Source of the DNA: a virus
Lineage: Duplodnaviria > Heunggongvirae > Uroviricota > Caudoviricetes
Reading direction: 5' to 3' (one strand)
Virus record (IMG/VR): IMGVR_UViG_2690316028_000006
Coordinates: 1 to 4,505 of that record
Length of the DNA stretch: 4,505 bases
Both the position numbers and the translations under genes were made by a program. Of this stretch, positions 1-4,505 are shown piece by piece (within the stretch, counting starts at the first letter, position 1; the number at the start of each line of letters is the position of its first letter). Below the pieces are notes generated by a model. That model was given only the letters and a program-made list of their open reading frames with translations, was not told where the DNA came from and searched no databases.

Positions 1-593
1 AACTTCCGGCGAAGTCCATCTGGTGGCAGGGGGAGGAGTATAAAGCCTGGCCGTGTCAGATTGAGGGGATCGAGGCTTCAACCTCGGGAAGTAGTGCCCA
101 GCCAAAACTTTCGGTTGCTAACCTCGACAGTTCGATCACCGCGCTTTGCCTGGCTTACGACGATATGCTGCAGGCGAAGGTGACGATACATGACACCCTT
201 GGTAAGTATCTCGATGCGAGAAACTTCACCGGAGGCAATCCGACAGCCGATCCGACCCAGGAGAAGCTGAAGGTTTTCTACATCGATGCAAAGAGCAGTG
301 AAACCAATGAAGTTGTTGAGTTCACACTATCCAGCCCTATGGATCTGCAGGGGCTGATGATACCTACCCGCCAGCTTCATTCTCTGTGCACATGGTGCAT
401 CCGGAACAAGTACCGAACCGGCGACGGCTGCGACTATGCTGGTACGCGCTATTTCGACAAAAACAACAACCCGGTAAGCGATCCGTCGCTGGATGAATGC
501 AACGGCACGCTGACGGCCTGCAAACTCCGATTCGGCGAAGATAACGAACTCTCGTTTGGTGGCTTCCCGGGCACGTCTTTGATCAGGAGTTGA
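1..593 (+). CDS. L: Minor tail protein L (lambda gpL-like), 5'-partial; reading frame is open from position 3 to the TGA at 591-593
   Basis: Frame 3 has no stop from the window edge to 593. The translation (…SIWWQGEEYKAWPCQIEGIE…KLSVANLDSSITALCLAYDDMLQAK…CTWCIRNKYRTGDGCDYAG…DECNGTLTACKLRFG…NELSFGGFPGTSLIRS) matches the remembered architecture of lambda gpL, including the C-terminal cysteine cluster. The ORF-track entry 165..593 is only the part after an internal Met. Confidence 0.88.
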   Translation, partial: LPAKSIWWQGEEYKAWPCQIEGIEASTSGSSAQPKLSVANLDSSITALCLAYDDMLQAKVTIHDTLGKYLDARNFTGGNPTADPTQEKLKVFYIDAKSSETNEVVEFTLSSPMDLQGLMIPTRQLHSLCTWCIRNKYRTGDGCDYAGTRYFDKNNNPVSDPSLDECNGTLTACKLRFGEDNELSFGGFPGTSLIRS

Positions 594-594
594 T

Positions 595-1305
595 ATGCGT
601 CAGAAAACCATCGATGCGATTATGGCGCATGCTGCAGCTGAATATCCTCATGAGTGTTGCGGCGTGGTGGCGCAAAAGAGCCGGGTAGAGAAATATTTTC
701 CATGTAGTAACCTCGCTACCGAGCCGACAGAACATTTTCACCTGTCGCCAGAAGACTATGCCGCTGCTGAGGACTGGGGTACGGTGATCGCCATCGTTCA
801 CAGTCACCCTGACGCCACTACGCAGCCGAGCGAACTGGATAAAGCGCAATGCGACGCAACTCTTTTACCCTGGCATATTGTGAGCTGGCCGGAGGGGGAT
901 TTACGCACCATCCAGCCGCGCGGAGAACTGCCACTGCTGGAGCGTCCGTTTGTGCTTGGACACTTCGACTGCTGGGGGCTGGTAATGAGCTATTTCCGGC
1001 AAACGCATGGTATCGAGCTCCACGATTACCGGGTGGATTATCCCTGGTGGGAAAACGACTACCAGGACAATTTCTATCAGGAGTGCTGGTACGAGTGCGG
1101 ATTCAGGGAGTTTGATGGCCCGCCTCAGGAAGGGGACCTCATCATCATGCAGGTCCAGGCCGATAAGTGGAATCACGCGGGGATCCTGCTTGAGGGCAAT
1201 ATGCTACTGCATCATTTGTACGGTCATCTTAGCCAGCGCGTGCCATATGGTGGCTACTGGCAGGAAAGAACAATGAAAGTACTTCGGTACAAAGTATTTT
1301 GTTAA
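595..1305 (+). CDS. K: Tail assembly protein K (gpK-like), with an N-terminal MPN/JAMM metalloprotease-like domain and a C-terminal NlpC/P60-like domain
   Basis: 236-aa ORF starting 1 nt after the L stop, with CAGGAG 8 nt upstream of the ATG. Contains an exact JAMM motif HSHPDATTQPSELD (H-x-H-x7-S-xx-D, nt 799-840) and NlpC/P60-like Cys (FDCWG, nt 970-972) and His (NHAG, nt 1174-1176). Position after L fits lambdoid synteny. Confidence 0.9.
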   Translation: MRQKTIDAIMAHAAAEYPHECCGVVAQKSRVEKYFPCSNLATEPTEHFHLSPEDYAAAEDWGTVIAIVHSHPDATTQPSELDKAQCDATLLPWHIVSWPEGDLRTIQPRGELPLLERPFVLGHFDCWGLVMSYFRQTHGIELHDYRVDYPWWENDYQDNFYQECWYECGFREFDGPPQEGDLIIMQVQADKWNHAGILLEGNMLLHHLYGHLSQRVPYGGYWQERTMKVLRYKVFC

Positions 1306-1392
1306 TTCTATAGTGGTTAAGTTGTTAATTACTCACTCCATAACTTCATGTTAGTATTCCTCTGATATTTTCAATGAAAGGGAAGCTTAATT
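1306..1392 (+). promoter_or_regulatory. AT-rich leader of the lipoprotein cassette; probable moron promoter region plus Shine-Dalgarno (AAGGGAAG, about 1377-1384)
   Basis: Sharp drop in GC straight after the K stop codon. Several weak -35/-10-like hexamers are present (e.g. TTGTTA 1322-1327, TAGTAT 1352-1357, GATATT 1364-1369) but none forms a convincing pair with 16-18 bp spacing. Only the Shine-Dalgarno is reasonably clear. Confidence 0.3.
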
Positions 1393-1788
1393 GTGAAAAA
1401 AATATTGTTCTCTGGTCTTGTGGTGCTTGCCACCGCTGGATGTGCTGATAATAGGCCAATGCCGGTATTAGATACTAAGCCTGTCACATGTTCATCAGAG
1501 GCTGAATGTAGTTATCTTTGGTCGAAGGTTCCTCAGCATTTGGAGTTTGCAACAAAAATGAGAGTAGAATCAGCTAACGATACATTTATAACAACATTCC
1601 CACCTATTGATACAAGGCAACTTGCAGGACGGGCATCTAAGGTTAAACAGTCCGGCGATACGGCAATAAATGCTGAATTCCAATGCCATCGACATTATGG
1701 GCAGAAGGATTGTGAAAGGGCGGTAATTAATGCTACAAATTTCTTTAATCAAGCAATGAGCATTGAAAAGAAACATTTTAATAAATAA
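1393..1788 (+). CDS. Predicted lipoprotein, 131 aa, GTG start, function unknown (moron gene)
   Basis: N-terminus MKKILFSGLVVLATAGC has a basic n-region, a hydrophobic core and a lipobox-compatible ATAG|C with Ala at +2 (no Asp inner-membrane retention signal). The mature part has four Cys (C33, C39, C98, C107). Coding region is AT-rich relative to flanking tail genes, has its own Shine-Dalgarno and is followed by an intrinsic terminator. Confidence 0.75.
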   Translation: MKKILFSGLVVLATAGCADNRPMPVLDTKPVTCSSEAECSYLWSKVPQHLEFATKMRVESANDTFITTFPPIDTRQLAGRASKVKQSGDTAINAEFQCHRHYGQKDCERAVINATNFFNQAMSIEKKHFNK

Positions 1789-1812
1789 ACACCTAAATAA
1801 ATCAACCAAATT

Positions 1813-1834
1813 AAACCGCTTCGGCGGTTTTTTT
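1813..1834 (+). terminator. Rho-independent terminator of the lipoprotein cassette
   Basis: Perfect 7-bp stem AAACCGC/GCGGTTT with a TTCG tetraloop (1820-1823), followed by a T-run through 1834; located 25 nt after the lipoprotein stop codon. Confidence 0.75.
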
Positions 1835-1849
1835 ACGTGGGGGGATTAT

Positions 1850-2437
1850 ATGCAAGAGGTCATGAGTCGAATTGAATTAGGCAGTGTTCTTGGAAAAACG
1901 TTTGGCAAAGTTCACTACCGTCTGATATCCCGCGTAAGCGAAGCAGGCGTTGCACTCGCAAAAACCATTCCTGGATTTGAGCAGTTTATGATTTCCAGCC
2001 AACGCCGTGGGCTCACATACTCCGTGTTTAAGGGTAAAAAAAACATCGGTGTGGATGACCTTGGCTTCCCGATTACCGGCGAGGTTATTCGCATTGTTCC
2101 GGTAATCATCGGGAGTAAAAAAGCCGGTTTGATTCAAACTATCCTGGGCGCAGTATTAGTGATTGCATCGATCTGGATGCCAGGTCTGAGTATAGCTGCC
2201 AGCAATATGATGTTTGCTGCTGGTGCGTCCATAACGCTGGGGGGGGTAGTTCAGATGTTATCCCCTCAGGCTACAGGGCTGGCCAGCAAACAGAGCTCAG
2301 ATAACCGCGCCTCATACGCGTTCGGCGGGGTAACCAACACTGCAGCGCAAGGCTACCCAGTGCCTCTGCTTTATGGTAAGCGTCGAATCGGCGGAGCGAT
2401 TATTTCTGCCGGAATTTATGTCGAAGATCAACAGTAA
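1850..2437 (+). CDS. I: Tail assembly protein I (gpI-like)
   Basis: C-terminal region (…SITLGGVVQMLSPQATG…YPVPLLYGKRRIGGAIISAGIYVEDQQ) resembles the lambda gpI C-terminus as remembered (…GGVAQMLAPKA…VLPVLYGEMRVG…). Start chosen at ATG 1850 (a G6 run at 1839-1844 serves as Shine-Dalgarno, 5-nt spacer) rather than the track's 1763, which would overlap the lipoprotein gene and span the terminator. Confidence 0.8.
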   Translation: MQEVMSRIELGSVLGKTFGKVHYRLISRVSEAGVALAKTIPGFEQFMISSQRRGLTYSVFKGKKNIGVDDLGFPITGEVIRIVPVIIGSKKAGLIQTILGAVLVIASIWMPGLSIAASNMMFAAGASITLGGVVQMLSPQATGLASKQSSDNRASYAFGGVTNTAAQGYPVPLLYGKRRIGGAIISAGIYVEDQQ

Positions 2438-2474
2438 ATTAATTAACTTATTAGCTGATAGGCAGGAGAAAACT

Positions 2475-2792
2475 ATGACTTTAGAAGAGCGCATGAGCAT
2501 GCTTGAGGCAACCATCGCGAGCCTGCAGGTGGAGATAGCAGAGCTGCATAACCCGGCAATCGTCAATTCCGCCATTCAGAACGCACTACGGCCAGGTGGC
2601 GCTATTCATTCGATCATCACCGGTAATGGCTGGAGTTTGCGAGTAAAGGAGGGAAAGATTTCGCAGGGTGATGCAGGGGTTTTCGGTGGAACGGTAACAG
2701 CGGCCCAGAATGAGGCCGCTAAAACTCATGAAGAAATATTCAATGAAAAGCTCGATTTAATTATTTCTTTGATGCCACCTCTAAAACTTTAA
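2475..2792 (+). CDS. Hypothetical small protein, 105 aa, helical/coiled-coil-like N-terminus
   Basis: Strong Shine-Dalgarno AGGAG (2464-2468) with a 6-nt spacer to ATG 2475. Translation MTLEERMSMLEATIASLQVEIAELHNPAIVNSAIQNALRPGG…LMPPLKL. Start trimmed from the track's 2373, which begins inside gene I. No homolog recognised. Confidence 0.6.
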   Translation: MTLEERMSMLEATIASLQVEIAELHNPAIVNSAIQNALRPGGAIHSIITGNGWSLRVKEGKISQGDAGVFGGTVTAAQNEAAKTHEEIFNEKLDLIISLMPPLKL

Positions 2793-3021
2793 GGATGCGC
2801 GTGAACGCATCAATTGTGTGCGGATCATTACGTGCAGCTGATTCTGGGATTTTTGCTTGCCCTGCCTGATAGTTTTTAGTCAGAGCATCGAGTGCGCCTG
2901 GCCGGGCAATGTCCAGTAATTTCACAATGTCCGATAGAATCAGGCCAGTTGCAATTTCATGCGTAAGCAGCTTTTGTTTAAGCTCTGCCACTTCTTTTTC
3001 CAGTTCTAACATCGAACCCAT
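2761..3021 (-). CDS. Hypothetical small protein, 86 aa, convergent with and overlapping the 3' end of the 2475-2792 ORF
   Basis: Minus-strand ORF with a near-consensus Shine-Dalgarno (AAGGAG, 6-nt spacer, reverse complement of 3022-3040). Translation MGSMLELEKEVAELKQKLLTHEIATGLILSDIVKLLDIARPGALDAL…VASKK. No homolog recognised. Confidence 0.65.
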   Translation of the reverse strand: MGSMLELEKEVAELKQKLLTHEIATGLILSDIVKLLDIARPGALDALTKNYQAGQAKIPESAARNDPHTIDAFTRILKVLEVASKK

Positions 3022-3105
3022 TTACTTCTCCTTTTTCCAGAGGTAATCAGCCATTCCACCTGTTATGAGTTCACCAGCGTCCCACCGCTGGCGGGCTGAA
3101 TCCAC

Positions 3106-3132
3106 AACATAACCAGGTATTTAGATTTGTAA
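3106..3132 (-). promoter_or_regulatory. Candidate sigma70-like promoter for the minus-strand 86-aa ORF
   Basis: On the minus strand, TTACAA (complement of 3127-3132) and TATGTT (complement of 3106-3111) are separated by 15 nt. The match is weak and the spacing suboptimal. Confidence 0.2.
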
Positions 3133-3152
3133 CATCCTGATATTCAGACAGT

Positions 3153-3176
3153 AGCCACCTTTGGGTGGCTTTTTTA
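3153..3176 (+). terminator. Rho-independent terminator on the + strand, immediately upstream of the J start
   Basis: 7-bp stem AGCCACC/GGTGGCT with loop TTTG, followed by TTTTTT (3170-3175). The U-tract is on the + strand only; the minus-strand flank is not T-rich. Confidence 0.6.
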
Positions 3177-3186
3177 TGGGCGCAAT

Positions 3187-4505
3187 ATGGCTACAGATAA
3201 AGTGTTAAAAGGCCGCAAGGGCGGCAGCTCAAGTTCCCGAACCCCTACCGAACAGCCTGATGATCTGCAATCTGTAGCGAAGGCAAAAATCCTCGTTGCG
3301 CTTGGGGAAGGGGAGTTTGCTGGACAGCTCACCGGCAAAGATATCTACCTGGACGGAACAGCGCTGGAGAATGCTGACGGCTCCCAAAACTTCAGCGGGG
3401 TAACGTGGGAGTTTCGCGCGGGAACGCAGGCGCAAAAATATATTCAGGGTATTCCCGGTACCGAAAACGAGATCAGCGTAGGAACTGAGGTATCAAGTGC
3501 CACAGCCTGGACGCGCACGTTTACCAATACGCAGCTTTCAGCAGTTCGCCTGCGTCTTAAATGGCCCTCGCTTTTCAAACAGGAAGACGACGGCGATCTG
3601 GTGGGTTACTCGGTCAATTATGCGATTGACCTGCAGACTGACGGCGGCACATGGCAGACGGTACTCAATACCAGCGTGACCGGCAAAACGACGTCTGGTT
3701 ATGAGCGCAGCCACCGTATCGATTTACCGCAGGCTGGCAGCACATGGACAATACGTCTGCGTAAGATTACCTCTGACGCCAACAGCGCGAAGATCGGCGA
3801 CACGATGATGCTGCAGAGCTTCACCGAGGTGATTGACGCCAAACTGCGCTACCCGAACACCGCGCTGCTCTACGTCGAATTCGACTCAAGCCAGTTCAAC
3901 GGCTCTATTCCTCAAATTTCATGCGAACCGCGCGGCCGCGTTATCCGCGTTCCAGATACCTACGACCCTGAAACCCGCACTTATAGCGGTACATGGACCG
4001 GTGCGTTTAAGTGGGCATGGACGGATAACCCTGCGTGGATTTTTTACGACCTGGTTGTTTCTGACCGGTTCGGCCTTGGGCACCGTTTGACCGCTGCGAA
4101 TATTGATAAATGGACGCTTTATCAGGTTGCTCAGTATTGTGATCAGATGGTACCAGACGGCAAAGGGGGCAACGGTACAGAACCACGCTATACCTGCAAC
4201 GTGTACATTCAGGACCGGAACGACGCCTACACAGTCCTGCGTGATTTTGCCGCTATCTTCCGTGGCATGACCTACTGGGGCGGGGATCAGATTGTGGCCC
4301 TGGCTGACATGCCGCGCGATGTTGATTACAGCTATACGCGCGCTAACGTTGTTGGCGGTCGCTTCACCTATTCGAGCAGCACCACGAAAATCCGCTACAC
4401 CACAGCGCTGGTTTCATGGTCAGACCCGGGTAACGCTTATGCCGACGCGATGGAGCCGGTATTTGAGCAGGCGCTGGTGGCGCGGTACGGCTTCAATCAG
4501 CTGGA
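3187..4505 (+). CDS. J: Host specificity / tail tip protein J (gpJ-like), 3'-partial; runs off the window end
   Basis: Frame is open from ATG 3187 to the window end (about 439 codons). The translation (MATDKVLKGRKGGSSSSRTP…NTALLYVEFDSSQFNG…RGRVIRVPDTYDPETRTYSGTWTGAF…NPAWIFYDLVVSDRFGLG…DKWTLYQVAQYCDQMVPDG…) parallels the remembered lambda gpJ N-terminal region (…YPNTALVGVQVDSEQFG…RGRILQVPSNYNPQTRQYSGIWDGTF…DKWALYVIGQYCDQSVPDG…). Absent from the ORF track only because it has no stop in the window. Confidence 0.9.
   Translation, partial: MATDKVLKGRKGGSSSSRTPTEQPDDLQSVAKAKILVALGEGEFAGQLTGKDIYLDGTALENADGSQNFSGVTWEFRAGTQAQKYIQGIPGTENEISVGTEVSSATAWTRTFTNTQLSAVRLRLKWPSLFKQEDDGDLVGYSVNYAIDLQTDGGTWQTVLNTSVTGKTTSGYERSHRIDLPQAGSTWTIRLRKITSDANSAKIGDTMMLQSFTEVIDAKLRYPNTALLYVEFDSSQFNGSIPQISCEPRGRVIRVPDTYDPETRTYSGTWTGAFKWAWTDNPAWIFYDLVVSDRFGLGHRLTAANIDKWTLYQVAQYCDQMVPDGKGGNGTEPRYTCNVYIQDRNDAYTVLRDFAAIFRGMTYWGGDQIVALADMPRDVDYSYTRANVVGGRFTYSSSTTKIRYTTALVSWSDPGNAYADAMEPVFEQALVARYGFNQL

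Follow-up and report, generated by a model that had tools for sequence, protein, structure and literature searches.

Introduction

Genes 22 and 23 of phage HK97 were reportedly described by Juhala et al. in 2000 (J Mol Biol 299:27). In the genome record (AF069529), gene 22 ("moron") and gene 23 ("reverse moron") are located between the tail genes I and J, where they converge and overlap by 123 bp, and the reverse terminator lies on the last codons of gene 23. The same slot of HK022 (AF069308) is occupied by gp22 and srb (gp23), which are also convergent and overlap by 81 bp, with a canonical reverse terminator 7 nt past the stop. A literature search returned nothing relevant on "reverse moron" or on srb of HK022. 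In T4-type phages, the PeSL cassettes consist of a conserved promoter and stem-loop flanking variable non-essential genes, and are associated with modular shuffling (PMC2839356). STnc6030 of the Salmonella prophage BTP1 is an antisense RNA in late structural genes, which is expressed in the lysogen and excludes superinfecting BTP1 (PMC7067206). The product of the HK97 moron gp15 is made from the prophage and acts in superinfection exclusion (PMC3594210).

Here, a window of 4,505 nucleotides, the whole stretch of viral DNA under study (IMG/VR record IMGVR_UViG_2690316028_000006, positions 1 to 4,505), was analyzed around a pair of convergent ORFs. This overlapping pair is part of a mobile accessory-gene cassette within a prophage tail operon, a layout already annotated in HK97. 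The window and HK97 shared the left end of the cassette (GCCGAAAGGCAGGAGA), the - strand leader of the reverse gene (61.9 bits in HK97 with leader model R2) and the + strand terminator before J; the leader (95 bits with the same model) and the + strand terminator were also found in HK022. In contrast, neither gp22 nor gp23 of HK97 was detectably homologous to the proteins of the window, and gp22 and srb of HK022 had no homology to them either, the annotated forward ORF of HK022 being outside the MTLE family to which the forward protein of the window belongs. The reverse hairpin of the window lay 39 nt past the stop, as against 7 nt in HK022. The reverse unit resembled STnc6030 in having an independent (here putative) promoter and in being antisense to the late structural genes of a prophage; STnc6030 acts on the late mRNA of the incoming phage and is non-coding, whereas the reverse unit carries a conserved ORF, the expression of which is putative. 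Like the genes of the window, HK97 gp15 is an accessory gene placed in a tail operon of this phage group, and one homologous cassette (L013) occupied the very slot of gp15, flanked by the chaperone and tape-measure genes. However, gp15 is a co-directional membrane protein without sequence relation to the genes of the window, and this leader was not reported for it.

Location of the cassette in the tail operon

The L-K-I-J tail operon that makes up the window belongs to a lambdoid prophage of the HK97 type, and the flanks matched HK97-like phages in megablast searches. Tail gene K (595-1305, + strand) contained the JAB/MPN and NlpC/P60 domains (PF14464 and PF00877; phrog_30). The tail assembly gene I (1850-2437, +; phrog_32, E 6e-72), which aligned with gene I of HK97 and HK022, was upstream of the cassette, and the 5' part of the tail tip/host-specificity gene J (3187-4505, +; PF24801, E 2e-51; phrog_31) was downstream. 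The ORF pair was placed between I and J, where the spacer was 749 bp in the window compared with about 50 bp in the cassette-free HK75, whose I-J gap held only a terminator hairpin. The GC content was 0.44-0.47 over most of 2400-3200, with an exception of 0.545 inside the cassette at 2501-2700, and 0.53-0.58 in the tail genes K and J. Two of the features by which phage morons are recognized were observed here, namely extra DNA between adjacent conserved genes relative to close relatives and a base composition unlike that of the flanking genes.

Another low-GC gene (0.36-0.41) was located between K and I (1393-1788, +). It is a second, co-directional moron and encodes a lipoprotein (signal MKKILFSGLVVLATAGC; match to phrog_16082, unknown function), which is a candidate exclusion lipoprotein. 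The hairpin 3' of this gene (1813-1830) had a terminator-like score on both strands. The K-I gap of HK97 (13512-13834 of sequence L334, 322 bp) was unannotated and ended in a putative + strand terminator; it could be a remnant of another moron, and a scan of this gap with leader model R2 gave no leader.

The reverse gene and its putative transcription signals

The reverse ORF (2761-3021, - strand) is the cargo of the reverse moron and encodes 86 aa from the ATG at 3021. The protein matched phrog_23209 (E 6e-59) and had 13 homologues of 43-100% identity, in which the motifs MGSMLELEK..KQKLLTHE and ARNDPHT were conserved. Outside the overlap, the variation of the ORF peaked at third codon positions. 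AlphaFold2 confidently predicted a three-helix protein (pLDDT 86.7). Foldseek comparison of this model with PDB and BFVD revealed no match at E < 0.001, and profile searches against solved structures gave noise only. For both the forward and the reverse protein, the PHROG families matched were of unknown function, no significant match was found in Pfam, NCBIfam or PADLOC, and tblastn against 50,697 phage records gave no match. The toxin-antitoxin and regulatory-switch analogy of the preliminary description was not supported by these domain searches, and the reverse protein is a predicted three-helix protein, not a small hydrophobic toxin. For a type I toxin-antitoxin system in particular, neither the scan nor inspection by eye revealed a promoter for an antisense small RNA; the RNA antisense to the reverse gene is the mRNA of the late operon.

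A putative sigma-70 promoter of the reverse gene was located at 3106-3133 (-), with GTTACA as the -35 (3133-3128) and TATGTT as the -10 element (3111-3106), from which transcription would start at about 3098. Only 8 of the 12 consensus positions were matched, which was below the threshold of the scan. Nevertheless, among 117 distinct upstream regions of cassettes, 88% had a TAnnnT hexamer at a fixed distance of 6 nt 5' of the leader, and in the variant L031 the upstream DNA was replaced by TTGAAA-17-TATGCT in the same register. Between the + strand terminator and the putative -35 element, a conserved inverted repeat, ACTG(T/A)nnGAATATCAGG (CTG-N9-CAG; 3136-3152, -), could be an operator or an UP-like element; a LexA box was rejected at this position, the CTG-N9-CAG spacing being wrong by eye.

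At the other end of the reverse gene, a terminator-like hairpin was found 39 nt past the stop (2698-2721, -). As - strand RNA, it formed a 9 bp stem including two G.U pairs and was followed by a weak tail, UUACCGUU; with this poor U-tail it failed simple terminator criteria and was not flagged by the scan. Among 118 distinct cassettes, 55, which covered 10 cargo families, carried a hairpin of the form GCGGYC..GGCCGC 3' of the reverse stop, at distances of 5-81 nt (median 41 nt) and often with a U-rich tail. In these hairpins, G.U pairs outnumbered A.C pairs by 68 to 0, and for 50 of the 55 the RNA of the reverse strand was the more stable one. Read from the + strand, the hairpin DNA of the window (2721-2698) encodes AAQNEAA of the forward ORF.

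An intrinsic-terminator-like hairpin with a T-run was identified by the simple scan on the + strand at 3153-3176, 10 nt 5' of J. Terminators of this type carry a putative terminator annotation in HK97 and HK75, and the one in HK75 was present at the cassette-free I-J junction. The scan found no + strand terminator between 2412 and 3153, in agreement with the earlier claim that none lies between the + ORF and this hairpin; a hairpin with a terminator-like score at 2388-2412 (+), in the final part of gene I, probably scored by chance. No + strand promoter was found by the promoter scan within 1250-3300, the promoter of the late operon being outside the window. A small + strand RNA ending at 3153-3176 was considered and rejected, since no promoter for it was seen by eye or by scan and the leader helices favored the - strand.

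A conserved structured leader

The region between the putative promoter and the reverse gene was a conserved structured 5' leader of 77 nt (3022-3099, -), which was recognized from alignments, covariation and the bias of G.U over A.C pairs, and which scored 87.6 bits with leader model R2. The SD sequence AGGAG was located just 5' of the ATG at 3021. Helix P1 (3099-3094 with 3052-3047) was essentially invariant, whereas helix P2 (3093-3086 with 3079-3072) was 96.6% paired with four doubly changed pairs. Helix P4 (3061-3056 with 3043-3038), which was interleaved with P1, was 88% paired with three doubly changed pairs, as measured in a leader set picked without reference to P1 or P4. The covariation score of the whole tested structure was reached by none of 500 shuffles. 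Across the leader helices, 124 G.U pairs were counted against 6 A.C pairs, which indicates that the helices were selected in the - strand RNA. P1 was uninformative because it never varied, and was thus neither supported nor refuted.

In P4, an SD-like GGAGG or GGUGG was paired with CCUCU. The simultaneous formation of P1 and P4 is sterically doubtful, because the two helices are interleaved and have 3-nt connectors; as judged from the sequences, they would form a strained pseudoknot or, more likely, alternative conformers. When only nested folding was allowed, the CCUC box paired with the true SD region in 74 of 117 leaders, and this pairing would be compatible with a translational switch.

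The leader also contained a uORF, MADYLWKKEK (AUG GCU GAU UAC CUC..; 3054-3022, -), whose TAA abutted the main ATG. Its AUG was present in 107 of 118 distinct leaders, and the uORF was in frame with the cargo ORF in 12. A conserved leader peptide was rejected, since the length, frame and stop of the uORF varied and the AUG was replaced elsewhere by AAG, ACG, CUG, GCG or AUA; the conservation of the AUG is better explained by conservation of the RNA. A cmscan of the whole window against Rfam 15, on both strands and with E up to 1, gave no match. Over the whole HK022 genome, leader model R2 found the srb leader only. An antitermination RNA of the put type of HK022 was likewise rejected, as no second leader-like copy was found in HK022 or HK97 with this model.

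The leader common to these cassettes is thus a candidate for a new cis-regulatory RNA. Together with the promoter and the hairpins, it may constitute, as we tentatively propose, a portable and so far undescribed module that expresses antisense accessory genes within the tail operons of enterobacterial siphophages, acting as a cis-regulatory RNA switch between P1 and P4. In such a switch, CCUCU would pair with either the SD mimic or the true SD, and the response could be to temperature, to a ligand or protein, or to the late antisense transcript. As a portable module, the leader may serve more than 20 unrelated cargo genes and may have moved between operon junctions.

Cargo and spread of the cassette

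Diverged homologues of the two genes were always found as a pair, with the forward gene along the tail operon and the reverse gene opposed to it. Homologous pairs occurred at five junctions: I-J, tape-measure gene to M, M-L, chaperone to tape-measure gene, and tape-measure to next gene, the last of which belonged to a DUF6950-type tail module (another tail type). In these loci, the distance from the reverse ATG to the next operon gene was 165 to 175 bp, and this spacer was the most conserved part, with 76% mean column identity among ten cassettes, HK97 and HK022 despite unrelated cargo. A degenerate leader pattern was found in at least 120 viral contigs, and a second pattern that was blind to P1 and P4 again matched at least 120; in all, the leader was present in more than 190 viral-contig cassettes, which were spread over five or more junctions of tail operons. 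A 16-mer search of genome contigs produced chance matches only, with the leader in 0 of 120 among the matches listed.

The cargo ORFs behind the leader encoded 63-211 aa and started about 13-21 nt past the conserved leader core. Clustering gave 25 families, two of which were chance matches of the pattern in coding sequence, so that at least 23 are real, with a DUF1883 protein and a retropepsin-like protease among them. A single superfamily for the reverse cargo families was rejected because the hhalign probabilities were below 5%. In L026, two leader copies were located about 2 kb apart (2265-2323 and 4317-4375, both -), one with an srb-like gene and the other with a retropepsin-like protease as cargo, which shows that cassettes can hold two sites in one phage. 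At the M-L cassette locus of L014/L015 (3566-4325), two Rap1a-domain genes adjoined the cassette and were oriented against the tail genes. The leaders of L263, L310, L311 and L316 were truncated after GGCTGATTA or GAGGAG and joined to unrelated sequence, and are apparent products of recombination or decay.

This distribution bears on the strongest alternative to a regulatory leader, in which the conserved 165 bp (leader, promoter and hairpin) and the left end would serve mainly as recombination anchors in the manner of PeSL, the RNA fold being secondary. Conserved ends around variable cargo would be expected of such anchors, and at least 23 reverse families were found behind one leader, the same forward N-terminus was combined with at least 10 reverse families, and mosaic joints lay inside the forward ORF. 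The presence of the same cassette at five junctions and the truncated, fused leaders such as L263 and L316 point in the same direction, and the PeSL cassettes provide a precedent (PMC2839356). The likeness to PeSL is one of behavior only, without sequence relation: the window cassette also has mosaic joints, a conserved unit and variable genes. It differs in that it occurs in other phages, adds a covarying 5' leader RNA and sits antisense in an essential late operon, and no mini-circles are known for it. However, anchoring predicts neither the compensatory base changes nor the one-strand bias of 124 G.U to 6 A.C pairs. A mainly recombinational role is therefore possible but somewhat doubtful, and it is compatible with a role of the RNA fold.

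The forward gene and the convergent overlap

The forward ORF (2475-2792, + strand) encodes a protein of 105 aa, which matched phrog_22477 (E 2e-72) and contained an N-terminal MTLE(E/Q)R coiled coil, an NALRPGG motif and a TAAQNEAAK motif. The mechanically listed ORF started at 2373, and in RefSeq the start is the ATG at 2418, within gene I, giving 124 aa (L004 14979-15353). The ATG at 2475 is favored over ATG 2418 because the SD and the MTLE start are conserved throughout the family; the SD, AGGAG (2464-2468), ends 6 nt before this start. It is preceded by a mini-hairpin, GCTGATAGGC (GCCGAAAGGC in most cassettes), and the two together form the conserved left end of the cassette (2454-2468, +), which was found in cassettes at different junctions and in HK97.

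The forward family was a mosaic of 73 distinct protein variants over 111 loci, which shared the SD, the MTLE(Q/E)R coiled-coil N-terminus, the RPGG motif and an AAQNxAA motif. Its indels were in frame, and its variation by codon position was highest at the third (9417 versus 6322 and 4898). The mosaic joints lay within the ORF, and the tail type switched with the subtype of the reverse gene. Some cassette forward proteins belonged to the same PHROG family as HK97 gp22. The structure model of the forward protein was poor (pLDDT 54.8). Part of the forward proteins of the L287 and L047 types (GGQVFIDDAKINxG..AAQ) resembled, weakly and below threshold, the Phage_Tail_Tip domain found in J (PF09327, E 0.0035).

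The forward ORF stops with TAA at 2790-2792 and the reverse ORF with the complement of 2761-2763, so the 3' ends of both share 32 bp (2761-2792). The coordinates of this overlap, which the preliminary description had pointed out, were reproduced. In RefSeq, both CDSs are annotated, again overlapping by 32 bp, in an E. coli prophage of 99.9% identity; the cassette is also carried in identical form by E. coli NZ_LR536431. The condition under which that description would have failed, namely that one of the ORFs is non-coding or not conserved, was not borne out, as both were conserved and varied in the manner of coding sequence. The proposal that the + transcript may run antisense across the whole minus-strand gene also held for the geometry, and in a stronger form than had been stated. 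Because J lies downstream, at 3187, the antisense overlap is unavoidable and far wider than 32 bp: a late transcript that expresses J must be antisense to the entire reverse gene, its leader and its promoter, and then cross the terminator at 3153-3176. The overlap of the transcription units thus follows from the gene order, the activity of both promoters being putative.

Among 50 distinct cassettes, which are related to each other and hence not 50 independent events, 47 had a forward frame beginning with MTLE that remained open up to a point within the reverse ORF. The other two frames were open over the span of the forward ORF in 0 of 100 cases, whereas roughly half of all frames were open when the last 45 nt were taken by themselves; a single stop-free run of 23 codons is unsurprising alone. 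Over the final 11 codons of the reverse gene, the least variable codon position came to be the third. The length of the overlap was 32, 35, 41 or 53 bp among the fetched homologous loci of the window's family and ranged from 4 to 65 bp across cassette families.

These data allow the overlap itself to be judged as a regulator, through which pairing of the mRNA 3' ends or collision of polymerases within the 32 bp would tune one or both genes. Such a role is unlikely. It would fit the 47 of 50 open frames against about 50% expected in the last 45 nt, the overlaps of the non-homologous pairs of HK97 and HK022 (123 and 81 bp), and the quiet third position in the last reverse codons, which is expected if both frames are constrained. 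However, the transcripts overlap far past the ORFs, since the reverse stop and its hairpin are 39 nt apart and the late transcript spans the unit, so that 32 bp add little. The variation of the overlap from 4 to 65 bp by family also speaks against it, as do the lack of toxin, antitoxin or defence domains in Pfam, NCBIfam and PADLOC searches and the 3 of 82 scored MTLE-type instances in which the forward stop fell short of the reverse ORF. The 32-bp overlap may instead be a by-product of the + ORF reading into an inserted reverse unit, and is perhaps functionless. It is most improbable that the + ORF is merely an open frame tolerated antisense to the 3' region of the reverse unit: the DNA for its C-terminal third comes from the terminator, 3' UTR and ORF end of the reverse unit, its tail follows the reverse subtype, its model is of low pLDDT and HK022-type cassettes are without this forward ORF, but against this stand the SD, start, coiled-coil N-terminus and RPGG motif conserved across 73 variants, the in-frame indels, the variable third positions, the PHROG matches and the other two frames that are never open over the same span. 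The + ORF is a real gene of the late operon.

Proposed model and implications

The locus is best explained as a mobile two-gene moron cassette between I and J, with a self-contained reverse moron and a forward gene of the late operon, and we consider this explanation probable. Starting from the observed anatomy, conservation, coding status, RNA covariation and strand bias, we infer promoter activity, expression timing, interference, the mode of action of the leader and protein function as follows. The reverse moron would consist of four parts, a weak sigma-70-type promoter, the 77-nt structured leader, the gene of the 86-aa three-helix protein and the terminator-like hairpin. The forward ORF reads in frame through the reverse hairpin (as AAQNEAA) and the reverse 3' UTR and stops 32 nt inside the reverse ORF. 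In the lysogen, the reverse unit alone would be transcribed and supply an accessory function; that the gene is expressed in lysogens is suggested by analogy with other morons (PMC3594210, PMC7067206). Once the prophage is induced, Q-modified transcription of the late genes would have to reach J by crossing the reverse unit in the antisense direction and then the terminator at 3153-3176. The reverse promoter would be occluded by this passage, which would also yield an RNA fully complementary to the reverse mRNA, as a result of which the forward and reverse genes are proposed to be expressed at different times. The leader probably sets the translation or stability of the cargo, with CCUCU pairing either with the SD-like GGUGG/GGAGG in P4 or with the true SD.

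The 32-bp overlap is an instance of the HK97 moron/reverse moron layout and adds little alone. Its value lies in its surroundings, where at least 23 unrelated small genes are served by one unit of promoter, leader and hairpin, seen in over 190 cassettes from viral contigs, and where the genes borne by this leader are antisense within essential late operons at several junctions. If the leader is a working regulator, it would provide a sequence handle for candidate phage accessory genes expressed in lysogens, which are otherwise hard to predict, and a compact RNA element whose helices are amenable to compensatory mutation. It would also offer a natural system for the expression of genes against a strongly transcribed, antiterminated operon.
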